DNA of 64,000 bases from positions 64,022 to 128,021 of the forward strand of contig CAZWTT010000003.1 in assembly GCA_964637315.1 (NCBI GenBank). The letters run 5' to 3'. Under the pieces are notes generated by a model, which did not search any database, was not told the origin of the DNA, and saw only the letters and a list, made by a program, of their open reading frames with translations. The stretch is from an uncultured Dehalococcoidia bacterium (GTDB lineage: Bacteria; Chloroflexota; Dehalococcoidia; Lucifugimonadales; UBA2962). Shown one piece after another: positions 3,432-23,892 of the stretch (the first letter of the stretch is position 1; each line of letters opens with the position of its first letter). The position numbers were made by a program, and so were the translations under genes.

Positions 3432-4292
3432 TCAGTAGGGGTACTCTGGCACCTCCGTAGCCCCCTCATCTTCCGCGGACTCGGATTCGTCGGGGTTGGA
3501 ATCGGCTTCGGCCTCGTGCTCTGGCTCGTCAACATACAACTCGGTCAGGTCGGCCGCCGCCGCCTCTTGCCGGCGGATGGCTTGTTCCTGTTCGGCGATC
3601 ATCCGGCGCATCTGCTCTCCCACCCAGCGTTTTATCTCGTCCAGTGACGGCGGCGAGATGTAGAACACCTGGATGTCAGTCGGGAACTGTACCTGATGGT
3701 CTTCGTTGACCACGAACAGGCCCGCCTCGTCCGCCCCTAGCGTTTTGTCGATCACGTCGGCTATGTGTGCGTACCGTGTTTTGGTGGCCCGATCGAGGGA
3801 CTCTCTCACCGTGTCGCGGACGGTATCACTGATTAATCCCACCCCACTGCAACGCTGCCAATCGACGGCCTCCTCAAGCGCTTGGCGATGGTCCGTGGCC
3901 TCGAGTTTGGCCGTTGAGCGACACAGTACGTTGATGAACGAATGACCGTGGACGTTGACCTGTTCGATCTCCTCCAAGCCCCCGTCGCCGCCATCGAATA
4001 CTGATTCGTGGTACACGTGGGTCACACTGGTCAGGGTCCTCTCCAGGTTCTCTACCTGGCCGCGGACGTCGGTCCAGTATCGTTCGACTCTCTCCCTGAA
4101 ATCGTCCGGTATGTCGGCCATGACGAAAAAGGTCGGTACCAGATAGAGCTTGCGCCCCTCCCGGAAGCCCTCGGCCTCCGGCCTGGTAATCTCGCCTAGT
4201 GGCTCTCCGCTCGCTTGCGGCTCGCTCGTCATGGCTTCTTTGCGCGAGCGCTCATCGCTTTGGGGATTCACAGCCTCGGTATTTGCCGTCAT
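3432..4292 (-). CDS. hypothetical acidic protein, translationally coupled to fdsA
   Basis: 286-aa ORF whose ATG overlaps the fdsA stop (ATGA at 4289-4292). Residues about 6-30 are encoded by repeat copy A. The conserved-looking core runs GRKLYLVPTFF...VQFPTDIQVFYISPPSLDEIKRW. The C-terminal tail is very acidic. I recognised no family. Confidence 0.6.
   Translation of the reverse strand: MTANTEAVNPQSDERSRKEAMTSEPQASGEPLGEITRPEAEGFREGRKLYLVPTFFVMADIPDDFRERVERYWTDVRGQVENLERTLTSVTHVYHESVFDGGDGGLEEIEQVNVHGHSFINVLCRSTAKLEATDHRQALEEAVDWQRCSGVGLISDTVRDTVRESLDRATKTRYAHIADVIDKTLGADEAGLFVVNEDHQVQFPTDIQVFYISPPSLDEIKRWVGEQMRRMIAEQEQAIRRQEAAAADLTELYVDEPEHEAEADSNPDESESAEDEGATEVPEYPY
4204..4275 (+). repeat. 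~70-nt dispersed repeat, copy A (core GGCTTCTTTGCGCGAGCGCTCATCGCTTTGGGGATTCAC)
   Basis: Aligns base-for-base with copies at 7058-7137, 7329-7395 and 20470-20540, and inverted at 6694-6740. It lies inside the 5' end of the 3432-4292 ORF. Confidence 0.8.
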
Positions 4293-7048
4293 GCAATGAC
4301 CTCTATGCGCACCGCGCAGACCTTGTACTCGGGGATCTTAGACACCGGGTCGAACGCCGGGTTGGTGAGAAAGTTCGCGGCTGACTCCTTCAGTTTCACG
4401 AACGGCACAAACACCTGCCCTGCATCCGTCTTCTGGTCGAAATACACCCTAGCCTCCAGCGTCCCGCGGCGCGACTTGAGCTCCACCCTGTCGCCCTCTG
4501 CGATCCCGTATCGCTTGCCGTCTTCCTCGTTCATCGACAGCGGTATCTCGCTTGCGCGAGCCAGCAGAGTCGGTACCCGCCGCGTGAGGGTCCCGCCGTG
4601 CCAGTGGTAGAGGATGCGGCCGGTATTGAGGATCAGTGGAAACCTCTTGGTCGGCAGTTCCTCGGCGGCAGGACCCTGATCATGGGCGACGAATCGAGCC
4701 CTGGGCCCCCGCGGGAAGTCGCTTTCGTACAGATAGCGGGTGCCGGGATGGTCCGGGGTCGGGCAGGGCCACTGGATGCCACCCTCGCGGTCGAGCCGCT
4801 CATAACTAATGCCTGCGACGATGGGGGTTAGGGACGCCATCTCGTTCCATATCTGCGAGGGCTCAGAGAAGGAGAAATGATTCCCTATTCCCGAATTGCG
4901 CTTTTCTGAGATCCGGCGCGCCACGTCGCAGACGATCTCCCAATCTGGGCGGCTGTTGCCCACCGGCTTGATGGCTTGGCGCACCCGCTGGACACGGCGC
5001 TCGCTGTTGGTGAAGGTGCCATCTTTTTCGGCGAAGGAACTGGCGGGCAGGACGACGTCTGCGATCTCCGCCGTCTCGTGCAGGAAAATGTCCTGCACGA
5101 CGAGGAATTCGAGGCTCTTGAACGACTGCTTGGCATGAGTGAGGTCGGGCTCGGACAGCAGCGGGTTTTCGCCGGTGATGTACATGGCCTTGATGCGGCC
5201 GTTGTCCATCGCCTCAACCATCTCAGTGATGACAAGGCCCTTTTCAACGGGAAGGGCGTTGTCGCCCCAGGCGCTTTCGAATTTGGCGAGCGCCTCCGAA
5301 GCGACGTTCTGATAACCGGGGAGGTTGTCGGGAATACAGCCCGCGTCTCCGCAGCCCTGCACGTTGTTTTGGCCCCGCAGTGGCGAGATGCCTGCCCCCG
5401 GCTTTCCCAATTGACCGGATACTAGAGCGAGGTTTATCAGCCCGTGAGCGTTAGCCGTGCCGTTGGTGTGTTGCGTGATGCCCATGCCCCAGATCAGACA
5501 GGAGCCGGAGAACGGCGGGCTGGCGTAGATGCGGGCCGCGGCTTGTATATCCTTCGCCGGGACACCTGTTATCTTCTCGGCCTGGGTCAGGTTGTAGCAC
5601 TCCACCACGCTGCGCCAGTTTTCGTAGCCGTCTGTGCGATTTTTGACGAACTCCTCGTCGGCCAAGCCCTCGTCCAGTATGACTTTCGCGATCGCATTCA
5701 GGAGGGCCACGTCCGTGCCAGGTCTGGGACGTATCCAGATATCGGCGTAGTCGCACATATCGATACGTCTGGGGTTGATGACGATCAGCTTGGCGCCACG
5801 CTCGACCACGGCCCGCCGCATACGAGCGGCGGCGACAGGATGGTTGGAGTCAGCATCCGACCCGACGATCACCAGGCAGCCGGCCTCGTCGTAGTCGATG
5901 TAAGAGTTGGAGGTAGCGCCACTACCCAGGGCCACGAGCATCGCTTCTAACGAAGGTGAGTGACATAGGCGCGTACAATGGTCGATGTTATTGGAACCCA
6001 TCACCAGTCGGGCGAACTTCTGCTGGATGTAGCCGTCCTCGTTCGTGGCCTTGGCAGAGCACAGGGTGACGAACTCGCCGCCGTCGTACCCGGAAAGCTT
6101 CTCGGCGATCAAATCCAGCGCCTCGTCCCAAGACGCTGGTTGCAGGCTTCCTTCCTTGCGGACGAGTGGCGTGGTGAGTCGATCCTTGTGATGCACGAAC
6201 GTGTACCCGAACCGTCCCTTGACGCAGAGCATGCCCAGGCTTGATCGATTGTCCGGGTCGTCGAGCATCTCGACGATGGTGTCGCTGCCATCGACACGAA
6301 CTTTAATGCCACAGCCCACGCCGCAGTAGGGACAGGTGCTGGCGACGGTCTTGGCGATGTTCGTGACCGCTTCTTTCGTGCGGATCGCGCCGGTGGGGCA
6401 AACCGAAAGGCACTGCCCACAGGTGGTGCATGATGAGTCCATCAGGGGCTGGTCCATGAATGTGCCGATGCGGCTGGTCGCGCTCCCGGTCCCGAGGAAG
6501 TCGATGGCGCCGATGAGTTGATGGCCATCCTGGCAGGCCTGGGTGCACCGGCCGCACAGGATGCAGTCCTGCATCGCGATGTCGAAGACTGGGTTGGATA
6601 CGTCGGTAGCCTCCCGTCGCCGACCTGTCCACCTTGTCGAGGCGATTCCGTGGTGCTCCGCGGCGATGGTCAGTTCGCGGTGGTCCTCCGTGCCGTCCGT
6701 CGATTGCGAAAGCGATGAGCGTTTATGAAAAGAGCCTTTCGGGCCCACCTCTTCGCTGGGCTCGACCATAGCGAGAGTCAGTTCGATGACGCCGGCGCGG
6801 ATGTGTCGGACCTCGGGGGTGTCGGTTCGTACCGTGAGCCCCTCGGCCGCCGGCACCGAACACGAAGCTGGGTAACCACGCATCCCGTCCACCTGCACCA
6901 GGCAGGTGCGGCAGGAGCCGATCGGCTTCATATCCGGATCCTTGCAGAGCTGGGAGACGTAGGTCTCGGAGGCGTTGACCGCGTCCAGCACCGACGCCCC
7001 GTCGCTGACGGTCACCTCGCGCCCGTCGACGGTTAGAGTGACGGTCAT
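4289..7048 (-). CDS. fdsA: NAD-dependent formate dehydrogenase alpha (catalytic molybdopterin) subunit, Cys-type
   Basis: 919 aa. It has an N-terminal plant-type 2Fe-2S pattern (C35, C46, C49, C63), two ferredoxin 4Fe-4S motifs (CILCGRCTQAC, CTTCGQCLSVCP), the Mo-domain cluster CPYCGVGCG...C, and the active-site stretch IDHCTRLCHSPS. Cys362 (codon 5963-5965, TGT) sits where selenocysteine sits in Sec-type enzymes. Confidence 0.93.
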   Translation of the reverse strand: MTVTLTVDGREVTVSDGASVLDAVNASETYVSQLCKDPDMKPIGSCRTCLVQVDGMRGYPASCSVPAAEGLTVRTDTPEVRHIRAGVIELTLAMVEPSEEVGPKGSFHKRSSLSQSTDGTEDHRELTIAAEHHGIASTRWTGRRREATDVSNPVFDIAMQDCILCGRCTQACQDGHQLIGAIDFLGTGSATSRIGTFMDQPLMDSSCTTCGQCLSVCPTGAIRTKEAVTNIAKTVASTCPYCGVGCGIKVRVDGSDTIVEMLDDPDNRSSLGMLCVKGRFGYTFVHHKDRLTTPLVRKEGSLQPASWDEALDLIAEKLSGYDGGEFVTLCSAKATNEDGYIQQKFARLVMGSNNIDHCTRLCHSPSLEAMLVALGSGATSNSYIDYDEAGCLVIVGSDADSNHPVAAARMRRAVVERGAKLIVINPRRIDMCDYADIWIRPRPGTDVALLNAIAKVILDEGLADEEFVKNRTDGYENWRSVVECYNLTQAEKITGVPAKDIQAAARIYASPPFSGSCLIWGMGITQHTNGTANAHGLINLALVSGQLGKPGAGISPLRGQNNVQGCGDAGCIPDNLPGYQNVASEALAKFESAWGDNALPVEKGLVITEMVEAMDNGRIKAMYITGENPLLSEPDLTHAKQSFKSLEFLVVQDIFLHETAEIADVVLPASSFAEKDGTFTNSERRVQRVRQAIKPVGNSRPDWEIVCDVARRISEKRNSGIGNHFSFSEPSQIWNEMASLTPIVAGISYERLDREGGIQWPCPTPDHPGTRYLYESDFPRGPRARFVAHDQGPAAEELPTKRFPLILNTGRILYHWHGGTLTRRVPTLLARASEIPLSMNEEDGKRYGIAEGDRVELKSRRGTLEARVYFDQKTDAGQVFVPFVKLKESAANFLTNPAFDPVSKIPEYKVCAVRIEVIA
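6694..6740 (-). repeat. ~70-nt dispersed repeat, copy E (inverted relative to A-D), inside fdsA
   Basis: The reverse complement reads GGCTCTTTTCATAAACGCTCATCGCTTTCGCAATCGACGGA. This matches the core of copies A-D. It encodes FdsA residues about 104-120 (KGSFHKRSSLSQSTDGT). Confidence 0.7.
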
Positions 7049-7326
7049 GGCCTAGCCTCTCTGCGGTCTTCGCGAGACTTCGCCTCGCTCATCACGGCTT
7101 CTTCGGGCAAGCGCTCATCGCTTTGGGAATCGACGGCAGATCGGGTGTGAGCCGAGTTTCCATCACCGTTTGGCCGCTTAGGCTGAGACCAGACGACACC
7201 CAGTGCGGCGCCGATGCCGACTCCAATTGCGACTCCAATAGCCACCGAGTCCAGCGCCGCACCTATCGCCACACCGATGCCTATACCAACGGCGATCCCG
7301 CCACCCATGCGGCCGTTGCTGCTCAA
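7045..7326 (-). CDS. small glycine-zipper membrane protein embedded in the FDH operon
   Basis: 93-aa ORF whose stop overlaps the fdsA ATG (ATGA at 7045-7048). The N-terminal half is GGGIAVGIGIGVAIGAALDSVAIGVAIGVGIGAALGVVW (GxxxG-rich TM). The C-terminal roughly 30 aa are encoded by repeat copy B. Confidence 0.5.
   Translation of the reverse strand: MSSNGRMGGGIAVGIGIGVAIGAALDSVAIGVAIGVGIGAALGVVWSQPKRPNGDGNSAHTRSAVDSQSDERLPEEAVMSEAKSREDRREARP
7058..7137 (+). repeat. ~70-nt dispersed repeat, copy B
   Basis: Core GGCTTCTTCGGGCAAGCGCTCATCGCTTTGGGAATCGACGGC. On the minus strand it is translated as AVDSQSDERLPEEAVMSEAKS. The same frame of copy A gives AVNPQSDERSRKEAMTSEPQ. Confidence 0.8.
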
Positions 7327-7328
7327 GT

Positions 7329-7395
7329 TCTCCGCTCACTCCGTTCGCTCGTCAAGACTTCTTCGCGCAAGCGCTCATCGCTTCGCAATCGACGG
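7329..7395 (+). repeat. ~70-nt dispersed repeat, copy C (intergenic, between fdsB and the small ORF)
   Basis: TCTCCGCTCACTCCGTTCGCTCGTCAAGACTTCTTCGCGCAAGCGCTCATCGCTTCGCAATCGACGG. This is the only copy not inside an ORF. It fills most of the 83-nt gap 7327-7409. Confidence 0.8.
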
Positions 7396-7409
7396 TACTA
7401 GGCGTCTGT

Positions 7410-8990
7410 TCAAGCGTGCAATATCCCGGGAAAGAAGTGCAGAAAACTGGTTATGGGGGCCCCTGCCGCCTGACCCAGACCGCAGAGGGAGGTCGACCCA
7501 ACTATGTCAGCTAGGTAGGTCAACTCATCGAGGTCGGCCTGCGAGCCGTTGCCCGACGCCAGCCGGTCGATGGCTTCCACTATGCGAGGCGTTCCCTCGC
7601 GGCACGGTGTGCATTTGCCGCAAGACTCGTCTGCGTTGTACGCGGCTAGCGCCCTCATCGCCTCGACGACGCCGACGGACTCGTCCAGTGCGACCAACCC
7701 ACCTGCGCCCAGCATTATGCCAGACTCGTGCAGCATGCCGGGCATGATCTCGATATCAAGGGAAGTCGGCGGCAGAAGCCCGCTCGACGGCCCGCCGACC
7801 CCCAGTGCCGTCAGCGTCCGGCCCTCTCGCAAGTCGCCACCGACGCCCTCCACAACCTCACGCAGAGGAGTTCCGAATGGCACCTCGATCAGGCCCGGTC
7901 GTTCGACCGCCCCGGAAAGGCTCAGCACCTTGGTGCCCGAGGCTCCCTCGACACCGATAGCGGCGAAGGCATCCGGGCCGTCATTGATGATGAACGGCAG
8001 GTTGGACAGGGTTTCAGCGTTGTTAACGATGGTCGGTCTACCTAGGTAACCCGACTCGGTAGGGAAGGGAGGGCGCAGCCGGGGTTCCCGGCGGTAACCC
8101 TCCATCGTGTCCAGAAGCGTGGTCTCCTCTCCGCACACGTAGCCGCCTGCGCCCCTGCGGATCTCCATTCGAACGGGCCAGCCTGATCCGAGTACGTCGG
8201 TGCCAACGAGGCCGAGCGCCATCGCATCGGCCAGCGATCGTTCCATTCGCGCCGCCGAAAAATCGGCCTCGGCGTTGATGTAGATAAAGATCGCCTCGGC
8301 GCCCGCGGCGTAGGCGGCAATGAGCGCCCCTTCGATCACCCGGTGAGGCAGGCCCTCCATGAGGTGGCGGTCCTTGAACAGGCCTGGCTCGCCCTCTTCC
8401 GAATTGACGATGAGGTACCGAGGCTCGGCGGCGGCCTTACGCGCACTCTCCCATTTGAGGGCGACCGGAAAATACGCTCCGCCGCGCCCCCTGAGGCCGG
8501 ACTCTTTCACCCGGGCGATCAAGGCCTCCGGGGACTCTGATAGGGCTGCAGCGAGGCCGGCGTAACCACCCCCGGTGAGGTACTCGTCGATGCCGTCGGC
8601 GTCGATTTCGCCGCAGCCGTTTAGAACCACCCGCGTTTGGCCCGACAGGAAAGTCGAGTCGTCTACGTAGCGTAGGGGCGCCGCTCCGCCCTCAAGCGTC
8701 GTGGAGATACGTATCGCAGTGTCGATGTCGACTCGGGGTAGCCGTACCGCAACCCCGCCCTGGTCCGTAACCACCACTGTCGGAGCGTCGAAACAGGCCC
8801 CGTCGCAACCGGCCACAACGAGGTGGGAATTGTCCAGTAGGTCCTCTCGGAACGCCTTTACGATATCCTCGGCTCCCACAGAGGCGGAGCAATGGCCAAC
8901 CTGGACAGCGACCCGTAATTTCTTGGCATGAGCCGACAGACGAACTTCAGCGGTGCTACGGAGCCGCTCGAATGCCGTCCGCGCCGTCAC
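7410..8990 (-). CDS. fdsB: formate dehydrogenase beta subunit (NuoF-like NAD/FMN/4Fe-4S flavoprotein)
   Basis: 526 aa with GLRGRGGAYFPVALKWE (FMN/NADH site) and ESCGKCTPCREG (the N3-type 4Fe-4S motif). There is an N-terminal thioredoxin-like extension. The gene overlaps fdsG by 4 nt. Confidence 0.9.
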   Translation of the reverse strand: MTARTAFERLRSTAEVRLSAHAKKLRVAVQVGHCSASVGAEDIVKAFREDLLDNSHLVVAGCDGACFDAPTVVVTDQGGVAVRLPRVDIDTAIRISTTLEGGAAPLRYVDDSTFLSGQTRVVLNGCGEIDADGIDEYLTGGGYAGLAAALSESPEALIARVKESGLRGRGGAYFPVALKWESARKAAAEPRYLIVNSEEGEPGLFKDRHLMEGLPHRVIEGALIAAYAAGAEAIFIYINAEADFSAARMERSLADAMALGLVGTDVLGSGWPVRMEIRRGAGGYVCGEETTLLDTMEGYRREPRLRPPFPTESGYLGRPTIVNNAETLSNLPFIINDGPDAFAAIGVEGASGTKVLSLSGAVERPGLIEVPFGTPLREVVEGVGGDLREGRTLTALGVGGPSSGLLPPTSLDIEIMPGMLHESGIMLGAGGLVALDESVGVVEAMRALAAYNADESCGKCTPCREGTPRIVEAIDRLASGNGSQADLDELTYLADIVGSTSLCGLGQAAGAPITSFLHFFPGILHA

Positions 8991-9889: not shown

Positions 9890-11776
9890 TTAAGCACCGG
9901 CCGCAACGGTCGATAACCGGCCTAGACCTAGGCTGACCAGCTTGGATGTGGGTATGGTGCCGTCGGGGTTCCAGCCGCGAGCCTCGTAATAGGAGTCGAT
10001 CATCAGCTTCAGGTCGTCTTCGGGCAGACCGACACCCACTCCGGGCCCATCGGGCAGATCGTCGGTCAGGATTCGCTGGGGCAGTGCATCTTCGGAGCGC
10101 TGCCAGCCCTCGCGGATGTTGAATAGCTTCTTGAGGTTGTTGATACGCTCGCCGGCGAGGCGCAACTCGTCGGGCGTGACGTTCCAGCCGGTGACGTGGG
10201 ACAGGACGATGGCGGACTCGGCGTAGAAGTCGTCGAACACCTTGCGCAGGAACTTGCACCACGCCAGCGAGTCAATCACGGCCGAGTAATCCTCGCCTTC
10301 GGCCGTGATTTCGCCCCTCTCCCAGTCGACGGCCAGTCTGTCCACCCGGTCGGAAAAATCGGCCTCATAGGCCGAGGAACGGTTGTGGCAGGCACCGCGT
10401 GTGCTGACGGCCAGCGCCAGCGCCATCGTCTTGAGGGACCGGGGCTCGTAGCCGGGCATCTCCAAGCCCTTGACGTGCATTGCCCAGGCCTCTGAGCCCT
10501 GGCCGACGCGCTCGGCTGCCCGGCGGCTGCCCTCCGCCAGCAGGTCGCCGAGGCCTCGCCTATGGGCGATGGCTTCCAGCGCCTTGAGGACGGTCTCGCC
10601 ATTGCCAAACCGTGGTGTAGATTCACCATCGAATAACCCTTTTGAAGCGCTTTCGGCGCACCAGGCGAGGGTGGCGCCGGCGCTGATCGTGTCCATGCCC
10701 AACTCGTCGCACATCACGGACGCCCGGAGCACCGCGTTGGGATCGGACACGCCGAGCAACGAGCCCAGCGCGAAGGCCGACTCGTACTCCATGCGTCCGG
10801 TCGCACGATTGCCGCTATCACCGGTTGTCATAACGTGCTCGCAACCGATCGTGCAGTTCACACAGTGGGCGTTCTTCACCCGGTGATGGGAATGGAACCG
10901 CTCGCCTCCGATGGCCGCGGCACCTTCGAAGGTCGAACTCTGGAAATTGCGAGTCGGCAGGCTTCCCAGGCGGCTGAAGACCTCGACGTTGGCCATTGTG
11001 CCCAGTGTTCGGTATTTCTCCGTCGCCGGTCCCAGGCTACGATGGCTCAGTTCCCGCCCGAGGCGGTTGAGGGCTTCCGGGTTGGCAACGGGCACCGGTG
11101 CGGCGCCGCGAACGGCGATGGCTTTAATGCCCTTGGACCCCATGACTGCGCCGACGCCGGTGCGACCGGCCTGCCTCCCGCCGTCGCTCCGGATGCTGGC
11201 GAAGCGGACAAGCGACTCTCCCGCCGGGCCGATGCATGCGACCCTGAATCGGCGGTCCAATCGTGCTTTGACGGCTTCCTCGGTCGCCGATGTGGATTTC
11301 CCGGACAGGTCGGCGGCGTCCAGCAACTCGACTTCGCCGTCTTCGATCTTGAGCAGGGTCGGACGGTCGCGAGCGCCTTTGATTACCAGAGCATCGAAGC
11401 CGCAGCGCTTTAGTTCGGTCGCCATGAAACTGGACGAGAGCGAGTCGCCGATGAAGCCTGTCAGGGGCGACTTGGCGACCACCGCGAACTTGCTTGATGT
11501 CGTCAGACGACTTCCAACCAGGGGACTGGTGACGAAGATGAGCGGGTTCCTGGGCCCGAGGGGATCGGCTCTCGACGGACAATGGCGGTAGAGCAGCCAG
11601 GCCCCCAGTCCGGTGCCGCCGATGAATGCGCGCAGGACCGCTTCGGGGATGGGCTCGAAACCCGCCTCGCCGGTGTCCAGGTCCACTACTAGGGCACGCC
11701 CTAGGTAGCCGAACAAGGGTCTGTCGGCGTTTGCGGAAGTCCCTTTCAGCGCAGCGGAACCGGTCGATACGGTCAT
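9890..11776 (-). CDS. aldehyde:ferredoxin oxidoreductase family (tungsto/molybdopterin) enzyme
   Basis: 628 aa with the AOR N-terminal signature GYLGRALVVDLDTGE...GGTGLGAWLL and the 4Fe-4S/pterin region KNAHCVNCTIGCEH. It overlaps the upstream moaD-like gene by 4 nt. Confidence 0.9.
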   Translation of the reverse strand: MTVSTGSAALKGTSANADRPLFGYLGRALVVDLDTGEAGFEPIPEAVLRAFIGGTGLGAWLLYRHCPSRADPLGPRNPLIFVTSPLVGSRLTTSSKFAVVAKSPLTGFIGDSLSSSFMATELKRCGFDALVIKGARDRPTLLKIEDGEVELLDAADLSGKSTSATEEAVKARLDRRFRVACIGPAGESLVRFASIRSDGGRQAGRTGVGAVMGSKGIKAIAVRGAAPVPVANPEALNRLGRELSHRSLGPATEKYRTLGTMANVEVFSRLGSLPTRNFQSSTFEGAAAIGGERFHSHHRVKNAHCVNCTIGCEHVMTTGDSGNRATGRMEYESAFALGSLLGVSDPNAVLRASVMCDELGMDTISAGATLAWCAESASKGLFDGESTPRFGNGETVLKALEAIAHRRGLGDLLAEGSRRAAERVGQGSEAWAMHVKGLEMPGYEPRSLKTMALALAVSTRGACHNRSSAYEADFSDRVDRLAVDWERGEITAEGEDYSAVIDSLAWCKFLRKVFDDFYAESAIVLSHVTGWNVTPDELRLAGERINNLKKLFNIREGWQRSEDALPQRILTDDLPDGPGVGVGLPEDDLKLMIDSYYEARGWNPDGTIPTSKLVSLGLGRLSTVAAGA

Positions 11777-18040: not shown

Positions 18041-20536
18041 TTGGTGGCGTTCCATGCCGCGTTCATCCTCTCGTTGCTTTCCCTTCCACGCATCGAGTTA
18101 TGGTGGGTCCTGCGCCACCTCTTCGCCAGCTGGGAGACGCTCGTTGCCGTTGGCCTCTGGTATCTCACGTACCACGTCGCCATCTGGTGGCACGAGCGCG
18201 GTCACTACTGGCAGTCCGTCGCCTCCCGTACACTCCGTGAAGACCTCCTGCCCGCCGCTGAAAGCGCGATGCGGTCGGGTGGCGTCGGACGGTTCGTCTT
18301 TGAGTCCCGACTGTTCGCACTGGCACCCGTGGGACGGTTTCCGGGCATAAAGCGGCAGGGATTGGGTTACTACGTAGAGGCGCCGTTCAACCTCTCGGCC
18401 GCCGCAAAGGGGCCGGAGGCAAGCGGTCGGCTCGGTCTCCTGTTGCTACCGCTCGCCGGATTGTTGGTAGCGGTTGGCCTTGTCTGGGACGCCAGTTGGA
18501 CCGTCTTCATCGGCCGTTTGTTCTTTGGCATCGGAGCCGTCGCGCTGCTCGACTGTCTTCTCGCCGACCCGGGCAGGTATAGGGAGTTTCAACGGCAAGA
18601 GTCTCGTGCCCGTGCGGCGGCGGCAACGGTCCAAAAGACCGGGACTTGGCATGAAAAAGTAGCTTCCGTCGCGGAGACTATGCGCACCACCCGCTTGGCT
18701 GAGCGTCACTTCTCCGATGGCACCGTCGTCCGCGCTCCCTGGACTTTCCGGAACTCGGGCATGGGCGGCAGGCATACCGAGAGAGACTACCCGGAGAGCA
18801 ACATCAGCCTGCAAGAGTCGATGTTTGTCCCCCTGTCGGCTACGAGCTACGAAGACTCCCAGGAGATGACCGTGGCGCTACAGGGCCGCCTCAAGGAGAT
18901 CATCGACATCACCACCGGCTGCCGGGTCATGGGAATCGGCATGGAGGGTGGGCTGGCCGCCTACATTACGCCAGAACCAGGCGACGAAGTGCCCGAGCTT
19001 CGCCTATGGCGGATGATGCGGCGCGCTATTGAGGACAACGGCTACGCTGCGGGCACCGACGTGGCGATCGCCGTTGATGCCGCGGCATCCGAGCTTCAGC
19101 AGGCGTACCGGGAAACCTACGACCAGCCCGACGCCATCGGGTCGTACCTGTTCTGGCGTGACCAGAATCAGCAAATGAGCCGCGAAGAGATGCTCGCCCT
19201 ATACGAGAAGGCCATCTACGAACAGGATGTGCCCATCGTCAGTTTCGAGGACCCCTTCAGCGAGGACGACTGGGAGGGCTGGCAGGCCATGATGAATCGG
19301 CTGGGCGAACGGGTGCTCATCGTCGCCGACGACCTCGTCACGACCAAGGATTCCACGATCGAGAGAGCGTCCGCTAGGAACGCCGTCAATTCGGTGCTGG
19401 TCAAAGCCAACCAGATCGGCACACTGACCGAGACGACCGCCGCCATGGTGGTCGCCCTGGCGAAGGGCATGAACCTGATCGTCTCGCACCGCTCGCAATC
19501 GCCCAATGAGACGATGGAGGCTGAGATCGCCATGGCCGCCGGTTCGTTGGGGCTGAAGGCCGGCGGCGGAGCCAACACCGAGCGCTTGGTCAAATACGCA
19601 GCCGTGGCCGATGTCCTCAACGGACCCGACCAGCCGCCGCTCCAAGCCCCGCTCGACGGCGTGCCGACGGCCCTCGACTCCGCCGTCATCACGGAGATCA
19701 CCGCGAGAGAGGAGTACACCAACGCCGGTATGCCCACCGTCAGGGCGACCATCACCGCACGAGTGCCGGGAGACCCTCGCAAGCTGGTCTTCACCGGCTC
19801 CACGCCCCTCGGCACTTCGGCCGGATCCGACGAGGCGCGACATCTCGTCGATTCGGTCGTCGAACCGGGACCCATCGTCGATCGATATCCAGAGAAATTC
19901 GCGGTCCAGGCCGACGGCACCTACCGGTTTGTCGAGGGCCTCTCGGGTGAGCAGATCGACGGCGACCCTGAACTGGCGGAGTTGTGGAGAAGGGCGCGGC
20001 GCTTCAGCGGCAGGGGAGTCCTCAACGCAGTCGACAACGTCCGGGAGGTGCTTGGTCAGGCCTTTGTCGGCAAGGGGGCGCGCGAATTGGGTAGCCTCGC
20101 TGATATCGACCGGGCGCTGCTGCGCATCGAGCTTCAGACGGCGGGGGCGCGGGGCAAGGACTGCGGCGATCCGGTCGCGACCGGACAGCTCAAGGCGAAC
20201 ATGGGCATGAACGCCATCCTCTCAATGTCCCTGGCACTGGCCAGATTCAAAGCCTTCTCCGAGGGCAAGGAACTGTGGCAGCTGTTGCGGGAGCAGCTTA
20301 CGGGGACGCTTGAGGGGATTTCCAATAGCAGCCGGCGTAACGGGACCGGTCCATCGTTCGACCAGCTGGTCGCCAACGTGTGCTCGGCCAACCGGAGCGT
20401 CGAGGACAAGGGTGGACCGTTTTACGAGATCGTCAGGCAGCAGATGGCGATCTACGAGCCGGAGCCCGGTTCTCCACGAGGTGCAGCCTCGCTCGTCAGG
20501 TCTTCTTCGGCCGAGGCCTCATCGCTTCGGCAATAG
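18041..20536 (+). CDS. fusion protein: N-terminal 4-TM S2P/M50-like HExxH module + circularly permuted enolase (barrel domain first, N-terminal capping domain last)
   Basis: 831-aa uninterrupted ORF. Residues 41-57 read YLTYHVAIWWHERGHYW (compare RseP HEFGHFW). Residues about 218-525 carry the enolase barrel motifs in canonical order. Residues about 546-745 carry the enolase N-domain motifs. Details are in the findings. The TTG start at 18041 is uncertain. The frame is open from 17990. Confidence 0.75.
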   Translation: MVAFHAAFILSLLSLPRIELWWVLRHLFASWETLVAVGLWYLTYHVAIWWHERGHYWQSVASRTLREDLLPAAESAMRSGGVGRFVFESRLFALAPVGRFPGIKRQGLGYYVEAPFNLSAAAKGPEASGRLGLLLLPLAGLLVAVGLVWDASWTVFIGRLFFGIGAVALLDCLLADPGRYREFQRQESRARAAAATVQKTGTWHEKVASVAETMRTTRLAERHFSDGTVVRAPWTFRNSGMGGRHTERDYPESNISLQESMFVPLSATSYEDSQEMTVALQGRLKEIIDITTGCRVMGIGMEGGLAAYITPEPGDEVPELRLWRMMRRAIEDNGYAAGTDVAIAVDAAASELQQAYRETYDQPDAIGSYLFWRDQNQQMSREEMLALYEKAIYEQDVPIVSFEDPFSEDDWEGWQAMMNRLGERVLIVADDLVTTKDSTIERASARNAVNSVLVKANQIGTLTETTAAMVVALAKGMNLIVSHRSQSPNETMEAEIAMAAGSLGLKAGGGANTERLVKYAAVADVLNGPDQPPLQAPLDGVPTALDSAVITEITAREEYTNAGMPTVRATITARVPGDPRKLVFTGSTPLGTSAGSDEARHLVDSVVEPGPIVDRYPEKFAVQADGTYRFVEGLSGEQIDGDPELAELWRRARRFSGRGVLNAVDNVREVLGQAFVGKGARELGSLADIDRALLRIELQTAGARGKDCGDPVATGQLKANMGMNAILSMSLALARFKAFSEGKELWQLLREQLTGTLEGISNSSRRNGTGPSFDQLVANVCSANRSVEDKGGPFYEIVRQQMAIYEPEPGSPRGAASLVRSSSAEASSLRQ

Positions 20537-20540
20537 ACGG
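20470..20540 (+). repeat. ~70-nt dispersed repeat, copy D (3' end of the enolase-fusion ORF)
   Basis: TTCTCCACGAGGTGCAGCCTCGCTCGTCAGGTCTTCTTCGGCCGAGGCCTCATCGCTTCGGCAATAGACGG. It encodes the last about 22 aa. It also supplies the stop codon: CAATAGACGG here versus CAATCGACGG in copies B, C and E. Confidence 0.7.
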
Positions 20541-20562
20541 TTCACTTTTGCAGCCCGTCCAC

Positions 20563-22768: not shown

Positions 22769-23842
22769 ATGGGCAGTACGTTCGGAAACCTCTTTCGCAT
22801 CACCACATGGGGCGAGTCCCACGGCGACGCCGTCGGGGTGATCGTCGACGGCTGCCCTCCCAACCTCGAGCTCGACGTCGTAGAGATCCAATCGGAGTTG
22901 GATCGTCGTCGGCCGGGCCAGAGCGACATCACCACCCAGCGTCGCGAACCCGACCGCGTCGAGATACTCTCTGGCGTCTTCGAGGGCCGCACGTTGGGGA
23001 CGCCGATCTCCATTGCCGTCCGAAACGAGGACGCTAAGGGCAAAGACTATGAGCACATGAGGACCGCCTTCCGGCCTTCCCACGCCGACTACACCTACCA
23101 GGCAAAGTACGGCATTCGCAACTGGAAGGGGGGCGGACGGGCAAGTGCTCGGGAGACCATCGGCCGGGTGGCCGCGGGCGCCATCGCCGCCAAGTTATTG
23201 GTGGCCGAGGGCGTGCAGATAGTCGGCTACGTCAAAAAGGTCTGGACCTTGGAGGCCGAGGTCGACCCCGACACTGTCACGCGCGGCGCGGTGGAAGCCA
23301 ATGTCGCCCGCGTACCGGACCCCGCAATGGCAGATCAAATCATTAACCGCATCAAGCAGGCACGCAAGGACGGCGACTCTCTCGGTGGTGTTATCGAGGC
23401 TGTCGCTAGGGGCGTACCCCCGGGCCTGGGCGAGCCAGTCTTCGACAAGCTGGAGGCCGATCTTGCTCGCGGTCTCCTGTCACTGCCCGCGTGCAAGGGC
23501 TTCGAGATCGGCTCCGGCTCCGCAGGCGCAGAGATGACCGGGTCAGCCCACAACGACCCCTTCTACTCCGAGGGGGGGCAGGTTCGCACACGTACGAACC
23601 GGTCTGGGGGCGTTCAGGGCGGCATCTCCAACGGCGAGAACATCGTCGTACGTGCCGTCTTCAAGCCGACCGCGACCATCGCGAAACAGCAGGACACGGT
23701 CGATGACCAGGGCAACGAGACCACCATCACCGGCCACGGCCGCCACGATCCGTGTGTCCTGCCGAGAGCCGTTCCAATGGTCGAGGCGATGGTCGCGCTA
23801 GTGCTGTGCGACCACCTGCTGATGCAAAGGGCCCTCCGCTAA
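22769..23842 (+). CDS. aroC: chorismate synthase
   Basis: 357 aa with the N-terminus [19 protein letters not shown] and later [13 protein letters not shown] and GRHDPCV. Confidence 0.95.
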
Positions 23843-23892
23843 CTTCGTTCGTTCTACACTCATCTTCGGCCCACGACCTCAGCCAGGTTCGT

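Follow-up and report, generated by a model that had tools for sequence, protein, structure and literature searches.

REP elements are imperfect palindromes of ~ 35 nt which usually occur as inverted pairs and are linked to RAYT genes. Three other described repeats also have to be compared with the element reported here. The REP2 of Neisseria has no terminal inverted repeats (TIRs); it carries two internal stem-loops and a ribosome-binding site along with an ATG, is often located directly upstream of open reading frames (ORFs), and both a fusion of its translational start to an ORF and a promoter have been reported (PMC3184786). MIRUs, of 40-100 bp, lie between operon genes, are co-transcribed and form tandem arrays (Supply et al. 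1997, cited in PMC3184786); their small ORFs overlap the flanking stop and start codons, and tetranucleotide direct repeats are reported at the filled sites (PMC3184786). Rickettsia palindromic elements (RPEs), of ~ 100-150 bp, are palindromic and nearly half of them are inserted in ORFs, where they enter unrelated metabolic genes in frame and add a tolerated peptide segment (PMC10969869). Here we describe a short repeat found in 64,000 nt of DNA from an uncultured Dehalococcoidia bacterium of the SAR202 group (GenBank assembly GCA_964637315.1, contig CAZWTT010000003.1, positions 64,022 to 128,021 of the forward strand), hereafter called the window, in which four copies overlap the genes of a formate dehydrogenase (fds) operon or the gaps between them. 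The element shares behaviour with REP2, MIRU and RPE and is a member of none of these families, REP2 and MIRU appearing to be nearer analogies than RPE. The likeness to REP2 is one of description, and the host belongs to another phylum.

In the dark ocean few groups of bacteria are as abundant as SAR202. To our knowledge it has no cultured representatives, so that its genome dynamics are known from assemblies only, and a literature search found no account of such a repeat in this group. In our view the five segments of 70-85 bases observed in the window, named A to E, are very probably copies of a small repeated SAR202 DNA element, and this element is just as probably a lineage-specific, non-autonomous interspersed repeat of SAR202 (Dehalococcoidia) genomes, normally located in short intergenic gaps. 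Comparison of orthologous sites has shown that its presence or absence at the same place differs between close relatives; judged from these alignments, the overlaps with ORFs in the window are lineage-specific insertions.

Detection of the repeat in the window

The window was searched with a covariance model (CM) and with an external profile hidden Markov model (HMM) built, to avoid circularity, from 66 copies that all come from other genomes. Both models match the five segments: copy A at 4196-4280 on the plus strand, antisense to the fds operon (CM 76.0 bits; external HMM E = 1e-13), copy B at 7059-7145 (+; 80.1 bits; 3.4e-17), copy C at 7321-7402 (+; 73.4 bits; 6.7e-13), copy D at 20463-20547 (+; 83.8 bits; 2.3e-19) and copy E at 6690-6772 (-; 21.6 bits, E = 2e-4; external HMM 8.7e-6). 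A sequence-only reading of the window had proposed a dispersed repeat family with five copies. This family is real, each copy lies where it had been placed, and the similarity survives significance testing, given that external HMM E-values range from 2e-19 to 9e-6 and that the best match of the same model in shuffled windows (n = 10) is only at E = 3.7. Furthermore, independent repeat finding placed A (4204-4274), B (7067-7137), C (7327-7397) and D (20471-20541) in a single direct-repeat family and matched B to E in inverted orientation, over 28 nt with 89% complementarity. The core pattern CTCRTCAN3CTTCTTN10CTCATCGC has four matches in the window, where 0.00 are expected from shuffles.

Copy E is an old copy which has lost its 5' half and whose model orientation is the coding strand of fdsA. 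The count of five is itself incomplete, as two decayed copies had been missed. The first (1-71, -) is partly tandem and truncated by the window edge; it was recognised from its sequence, from inverted-repeat pairing with the second and from a comparison of filled and empty junctions. The second (23834-23880, +) lies at the 3' end of ORF 22769-23842 and was recognised by the same pairing, the HMM alone being weak (E = 1.3).

Filled and empty sites in the fds operon and elsewhere

All genes of the operon are on the minus strand: fdsB for the NADH-binding subunit (7410-8990; Pfam Complex1_51K + NADH_4Fe-4S), glyZ for a small glycine-zipper membrane peptide (7045-7326; from the ORF call and relatives), fdsA for the formate dehydrogenase alpha subunit (4289-7048) and, downstream of fdsA, a conserved hypothetical gene (3432-4292). 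Longest-ORF calls agree with the coding roles that had been assigned to four copies: A corresponds to residues 6-30 of the 286-aa hypothetical protein and forms its N-terminal extension, B to the last ~ 30 aa of the Gly-zipper ORF, E to FdsA residues ~ 93-119, read from the strand opposite to the element, and D to the last 22 aa of an 831-aa ORF outside the operon. The syntenic operons of the FdsA homologues P0001 (locus L026, on chromosome OZ252295.1), P0002 (L027) and P0004 (L029/L030) were fetched. The earlier reading had considered that the encoded segments might prove to be conserved in distant orthologues; the orthologues lack them, which argues for insertions and not for ancestral protein features.

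In all three relatives the protein downstream of FdsA begins MTE[Q/K]L[A/T]EITRPK. The homologous codons of the window read ..SGEPLGEITRPE, the native ATG ACC being replaced by the element end AGC GGA, and the possible starts of the window ORF are the ATGA-coupled ATG (4292) and an ATG within copy A (4232). Copy B replaces the GlyZ tail (~ 30 codons) and leaves the frame open up to the ATGA overlap with fdsA. Copy C occupies the intergenic space that separates the fdsB stop (7410) from the glyZ TTG start (7326), where a fdsB/glyZ ATGA junction would have stood formerly. In L027, fdsB, glyZ and fdsA are indeed all ATGA-coupled without the repeat, and GlyZ ends ...QPKSASGNDENDEEPDA followed by its stop. 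The glyZ gene is conserved in the window and in L027 (9801-10004, ATGA-coupled on both sides) and absent from L026 and L029, in which a single element separates fdsB from fdsA. The L026 element contains the fdsB stop (9915-9925, GGTCGATTGCC -> GGTTGATTACC), so that D is not the only copy to provide a stop codon. The L027 fdsA gene carries a composite copy at its 3' end that adds a 25-aa tail to FdsA, and the GGAGAACA of this copy precedes the next ATG.

Copy E occupies a linker of FdsA between ..ELTxAM and HRELTIAAEHH whose length varies from 8 to 35 aa across homologues. The segment SS[R/A/K][E/R][R/A/S]SS[S/L]SQS.. is found there in the window, in L026 and in L027, where the copy reads GGCTCTTCGGCCGAGGCCTCATCGCTTTCGCAATCGACCG, and the DNA encoding it can be aligned with the element; the segment is missing from this site of P0003 and P0004 (L029/L030). 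Since pairwise identities put the window outside the other four FdsA, the simplest history would be an old insertion which was later lost in the P0003/4 line. FdsA of R. capsulatus (6tg9) has an HPLDCxxCxxxGxC cluster motif at the position of this linker. Compared with that structure and 6tga, the SAR202-type FdsA lacks the His/Cys3 [4Fe-4S] motif after the 2Fe-2S domain and has the variable linker instead (window 6700-6790, residues ~ 88-135).

Two further observations concern the operon. Copies B (7100-7144) and E (6688-6733) are mutually inverted, and the minimum free energy fold of the mRNA from 7200 to 6600 pairs them over 37 bp in a predicted duplex that encloses the fdsA start, with an energy about 5 standard deviations below shuffles; the inverted pair is also present in L026 and not in L027 or L029. 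Upstream, in the window above ~ 9500, the surroundings are conserved with L022, L026, L027 and L029 and comprise MoeA-like, NTP_transf_3, aldehyde:ferredoxin oxidoreductase (AFOR) and DUF6232 genes together with fdsG/B/A, FTHFS being found farther upstream of the fds genes. This neighbourhood looks like a Mo/W-cofactor and one-carbon (C1) gene cluster.

Outside the operon, copy D lies in the convergent gap between an enolase-like ORF (18041-20536, +) and a HAD-like gene. Homologues of the enolase-like protein end in ..YPV, ~ 22 aa earlier, and the window protein continues through D until a TAG which, as had been pointed out, ends the 831-aa ORF where B, C and E read TCG. The protein also has a long hydrophobic N-terminal extension; its identity to homologues, most of which come from short metagenome contigs, does not exceed 49%. 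The decayed copy at 1-71 has a GAGCGGAGAACA end that is followed directly by the start of an alcohol-dehydrogenase gene (ATG at 73); this junction of the alcohol-dehydrogenase and HpcH genes is filled in the window and in L029/L030 and empty in L026 and L027. A 150-nt direct repeat in the same region (952-1101 and 2011-2160, 71% identity) probably represents two adjacent zinc alcohol-dehydrogenase paralogues, because two such genes adjoin in L022.

Distribution in SAR202 and genomic context

An exact scan for the core pattern over 185,579 species, with one genome each, gave 18 loci in three Dehalococcoidia metagenome-assembled genomes, 12 of them on the complete 2.65-Mb chromosome OZ252295.1, which has 13 exact matches, and three isolated matches elsewhere. 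A related pattern was present on 42 marine metagenome contigs, and the viral contigs scanned with the pattern gave 0 matches. The fetched loci contain 93 non-redundant sites according to nhmmer (523 kb) and 88 hits according to the CM (465 kb). Where a source is named for an FdsA homologue, it is SAR202 cluster or Chloroflexi bacterium; the nearest homologues, one of which is encoded on OZ252295.1, are 83-84% identical to the FdsA of the window. The family occurs in a narrow group of SAR202/Dehalococcoidia genomes, and within it the element, far from being restricted to the window, is abundant in other genomes and loci. The less biased samples give 5 copies per 64 kb in the window and 2-3 copies per 22.7 kb in L026, L027 and L029; extrapolation from these, not a count, would put the number of copies per genome on the order of 10^2.

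About 65 of the 93 sites (about 70%) are called intergenic, and the element typically occupies the entire gap, with 0-30 nt to either neighbour. Between co-directional genes, 23 copies are in reverse orientation and 14 in model orientation, a difference which is not significant (p = 0.19); convergent gaps hold 21 copies and divergent gaps 10. Convergent gaps thus account for 31% of the copies versus 18% of the gene pairs of the same loci, and in being enriched at gene 3' ends the element resembles the REP/BIME repeats of enterobacteria and pseudomonads, as it does in being a high-copy, short, intergenic repeat with G+C-rich hairpins and no target duplications. Unlike MIRU, about half of the copies are not within operons (31/68 in convergent or divergent gaps), and both orientations relative to the flanking genes occur. 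These two orientations, the convergent gaps, the gene 3' ends and the one site inside a gene also set the element apart from REP2.

Seven sites were called internal to a gene. Three of these are the orthologous fdsA site and four (L070, L011, L068, L048) lie upstream of the true starts, hence the fdsA site is the only one of the 93 that is robustly internal. Terminal fusions are commoner, with 17 possible N-terminal and at least four C-terminal cases. The comparison with RPEs made by the sequence-only reading is therefore correct in part: copy E is a true in-frame insert within FdsA, and A, B and D are terminal fusions, but the family is mostly intergenic, whereas nearly half of the RPEs are in ORFs.

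Adjacent copies are arranged head-to-tail (L012 at 303/377, L011 at 5757/5842). At L034 (5267-5443) they form a tandem array of 4.0 copies with a period of 45 nt (15 codons) and 92% matches, and further head-to-tail arrays of this 45-nt sub-unit are found at L064 (326-482) and L068 (11227-11338), which recalls the tandem arrays of MIRU. The 5' leader ..ATTGCCAAAGCGATGA is present once only per 45-nt array. Given similar clusters at the unrelated loci L011, L012, L034 and L068, the concentration of copies in the formate dehydrogenase operon that had been claimed is a local cluster only.

Anatomy of the element

An alignment of 32 copies gives, in the model orientation, the order (G)YTCTCC - S1 - TCGTCAGGGCTTCTTCG - S2 - CTCATCGCTTTGGCAATCGACCGT, where S1 and S2 are hairpins. 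Nine columns are invariant and a further 17 are conserved at >= 90%, all of them within the linear core. S1 is a hairpin of ~ 7 bp located 5' of TCGTCAGGGC, the sequence of which varies between copies with the pairing kept: its arms read for example GCGAGGC/GCCTCGC, GTGGGC/GCCCAC, GGGCGGC/GCCGCCC, GCGAAC/GTTCGC or GCGCG/CGCGC. S2 is a 3-bp hairpin, GSS-N4-SSC, which exists as GCG/CGC and GGC/GCC. In copy B the stems are at 7072-7078/7082-7088 (S1) and 7105-7107/7112-7114 (S2), and in copy D at 20477-20482/20486-20491 and 20509-20511/20516-20518. About one third of the copies, of types TCTCCGCCGGGCTCG and TCTCCGCTCACTTCGTTCGCTC, have no S1, and copy C belongs to TCTCCGCTCACTTCGTTCGCTC.

The two stems are supported by covariation. 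In a MAFFT alignment, which is independent of the model, 77% of the S1+S2 cells are paired versus 62% after shuffling (0/500). Among 88 model-aligned copies pairing reaches 87.6% versus 70% (0/500), although this alignment leans towards the structure because it was fitted to it, and 115 cells are doubly changed versus 39 in shuffles (0/500); controls in which the stems were slid are 28-55% paired. The structure is nevertheless small, with only 10 paired positions out of ~ 75 and a consensus energy of only -3.8 kcal/mol in RNAalifold. S1 contains 8 G-T and 6 A-C mismatches, which gives no information on the strand of the structure. The 5-bp dyad AAGCG/CGCTT that had been regarded as conserved fares less well, as it is paired in 64.4% of cases versus 64.6% when shuffled and does not covary. 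An alternative long hairpin, GCCAA..TTGGC, was dropped since its 3' side is invariant.

The covarying S1 and S2 and the lack of TIRs are features shared with REP2: indeed, in the alignment the ends TCTCCGCG... and ...ATCGACCGT or ...AATCGACCGT are not complementary. In 24 copies with both ends intact no consistent direct repeat flanks the element, only matches of 3-6 nt at variable offsets being observed, unlike at the filled sites of MIRU. Compared with REP, the unit is longer (70-85 nt) and mostly non-palindromic, has a conserved linear core, stands head-to-tail with its neighbours and forms no single stable stem-loop. Judged on the alignment, with a near-invariant core and a freely covarying S1, the element is constrained unevenly. 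The cause may be that a protein, either mobilising or binding, recognises it, or else a role at the RNA level.

No Rfam family matches the element: its covariance models gave 0 matches over the window at gathering scores, and at E <= 10 over 7000-7450 the sole match is a chance snoRNA. For a promoter such as is reported for REP2, a sigma-70 scan of 4100-7500 returned no match, with scan rules that do not cover Chloroflexota promoters. The intrinsic-terminator scan returned one terminator-like site, inside E, which is fewer than shuffles predict.

Reading frames and translation signals

In the model orientation none of the three frames contains a stop. In the reverse orientation one frame is usually open and reads ..CQSDE[R/A]L[R/A]EEALTSE.., stops being present there in some copies; a second frame has an 8-codon mini-ORF, ATG...TGA, and the third has a TGA. 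Read-through of both orientations, as it had been proposed, is thus real at the ORF level. The peptides predicted from the repeat include SSLSQSTDGTEDHR as the FdsA insert, SQSDERLPEEAVMSEAK as the GlyZ tail and GAASLVR as the enolase tail. A composite peptide query of all open frames against 5.8 billion proteins returned nothing at E <= 10 because the segments are too short.

In reverse orientation the element ends in GGAG(A) and contains an ATG plus a CTG/ATG/GTG/TTG codon, and here again it resembles REP2: a long ORF starts 3-11 nt past the GGAG, or within the element, in 29 of 76 copies, a figure that counts rows as printed, with a few of the same sites counted twice. The stop of the open frame abuts a long-ORF start in 16 of the 76, an intercistronic arrangement like that of MIRU. 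In the window the B frame ends on the ATGA of fdsA. At copy C a GGAGAAC lies ahead of the glyZ TTG and a 10-codon TTG...TGA ORF overlaps that start (cTTGAg).

The CTG of the element, located in CTGACGAG on the reverse strand and in its open frame, is ATG in A (4230-4232), GTG in B (7094-7096, next to an ATG at 7091-7093) and TTG in C (7351-7353). In the copies elsewhere it is kept in 78 of 88 and replaced in 10.

Mobility and alternative explanations

The reading we prefer is that of a non-autonomous interspersed repeat. With a stop-free model orientation and, in reverse, an open frame accompanied by GGAG, ATG and NTG, a copy at a gene boundary should easily be absorbed into an ORF. This would have happened four times in the window: A would provide a new N-terminus and start, B a new C-terminal tail with the ATGA coupling to fdsA retained, D a C-terminal extension with a new stop and E an old in-frame insert of the FdsA linker. 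Copy C, which stays intergenic, would give glyZ a Shine-Dalgarno-like GGAG and a mini-ORF whose stop overlaps the glyZ start. The element would spread without duplicating its target, by a process of transposition or recombination that is single-stranded or depends on a hairpin, and its copies may be tolerated through its own ribosome-binding site. They may furthermore be homogenised by gene conversion. Window copies B, C, D and E read GACGG, and 46 of 64 other copies read GACCG (Fisher p = 0.005). Given that this genome-specific GACGG is present even in the old copy E, and that orthologous E copies differ in S2 subtype, concerted evolution through gene conversion among copies is suggested.

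Several points weigh against this interpretation. In the fetched loci we found no mobilising enzyme, no TIR and no consistent target duplication, nor, in 523 kb, a longer parent element with the same ends; hence mobility is deduced from presence/absence patterns only. Most of the loci were fetched on account of a copy in them, which biases densities and context fractions, and gene calls come from a crude GC3-based heuristic. The repeat-encoded protein segments are predicted from ORFs. As to the structure, single window copies fold no better than shuffles (z from -1.5 to +1.2), and S1 is missing in one copy out of about three, C included.

One alternative, which we hold to be possible on a tentative footing and which is compatible with a repeat, is that the element is a selected cis-acting expression module and its spread secondary. 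With the same reserve, the reverse-orientation hairpin and GGAG, sometimes with a start codon, would re-initiate or insulate downstream translation, or stabilise or process the transcript. This agrees with the 29 copies, a few of them duplicate rows, that place a GGAG at Shine-Dalgarno distance or a start within the element, with the turning of CTG into ATG, GTG and TTG in A, B and C when most other copies keep it, and with the B and C mini-ORFs, which finish exactly on the start of the next gene (ATGA, TTGA). A near-invariant core next to an S1 in which changes are only compensated is also uneven constraint, not uniform decay. However, the element stands in both orientations between co-directional genes without significant preference, no downstream cistron is served by the 31 of 68 classified copies that occupy convergent or divergent gaps, and relatives do without it at the same junctions. 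Moreover, DNA palindromes can gain compensatory changes without any RNA function, and the start-codon variants are too few for statistics.

It is rather doubtful that we are dealing with a REP/REPIN element moved by a RAYT, i.e. an IS200/IS605-like Y1 transposase. Such an element would account for hairpins with compensatory variation, for the missing target duplication and for an intergenic location with a moderate enrichment in convergent gaps. The arrays are head-to-tail, where inverted pairs would be expected, and the body is non-palindromic, both of which speak against a classical REP/REPIN. In addition, the foot of the hairpin shows no GTAG-like conserved tetranucleotide, and no RAYT turned up in the fetched DNA, in which no search aimed at RAYT was made.

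We regard as unlikely, though of wider consequence, a mobile 'translation-junction cassette' composed of hairpin, Shine-Dalgarno and start codon, which repeatedly replaces native gene junctions and is kept uniform by gene conversion. If true, it would rewrite the starts, stops and terminal peptides of core metabolic genes, including the catalytic formate dehydrogenase subunit. In a streamlined marine genome it would then be a layer, selected and genome-wide, by which translation is organised, and not passive junk.

A classical MITE (miniature inverted-repeat transposable element) moved in trans by a DDE transposase is very unlikely. The size and non-coding nature are fitting, filled and empty sites are polymorphic, and an rve-family integrase gene is located at the edge of L027. 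Still, ends that are not inverted repeats, together with the lack of a consistent flanking direct repeat, argue against it, and a search for element halves split around an insert of insertion-sequence size gave weak matches only (E >= 0.06).

That the copies represent a shared peptide module duplicated at the coding level, or chance, is hardly credible. The peptides of A and B are similar, as are those of D and E; but most copies are intergenic, the 'SDE' frame has stops in several of them (L006, L019, L007), the middle codons of the mini-ORF change radically with S2 covariation (SACA, RPWP, RRKP) so that its peptide is not conserved, and the orthologue comparisons refute such a module, whereas chance is excluded by the core-pattern shuffles and the external HMM. 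A small self-cleaving, hammerhead-like ribozyme on the reverse strand, for which CUGACGAG followed by a covarying hairpin mimics the CUGANGA + stem II arrangement, can be practically set aside and was rejected, given that GGAGA follows the hairpin in place of the essential GAAA of the core, that stems I and III are not evident and that Rfam gives no hit even at E <= 10. An integron attC was likewise rejected, since GTTRRRY/RYYYAAC core sites are missing and the element is flanked by the genes of a core operon.

Significance for SAR202 genomes

A repeat sitting on gene boundaries disturbs gene calling, in that starts, C-termini and small ORFs, glyZ among them, come out mis-extended or mis-started, and it can break or mis-join metagenome assemblies; conversely, it is a possible marker for strain typing. 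No general principle is changed by the interspersed repeat described here, comparable behaviour being known from REP2, MIRU and RPE. What it does offer is a clean natural case of repeat DNA becoming protein sequence, with an FdsA site that three lineages have filled and a fourth has empty, and, as predicted from the sequence, a case in which a repeat assumes the roles of ribosome-binding site and start codon.

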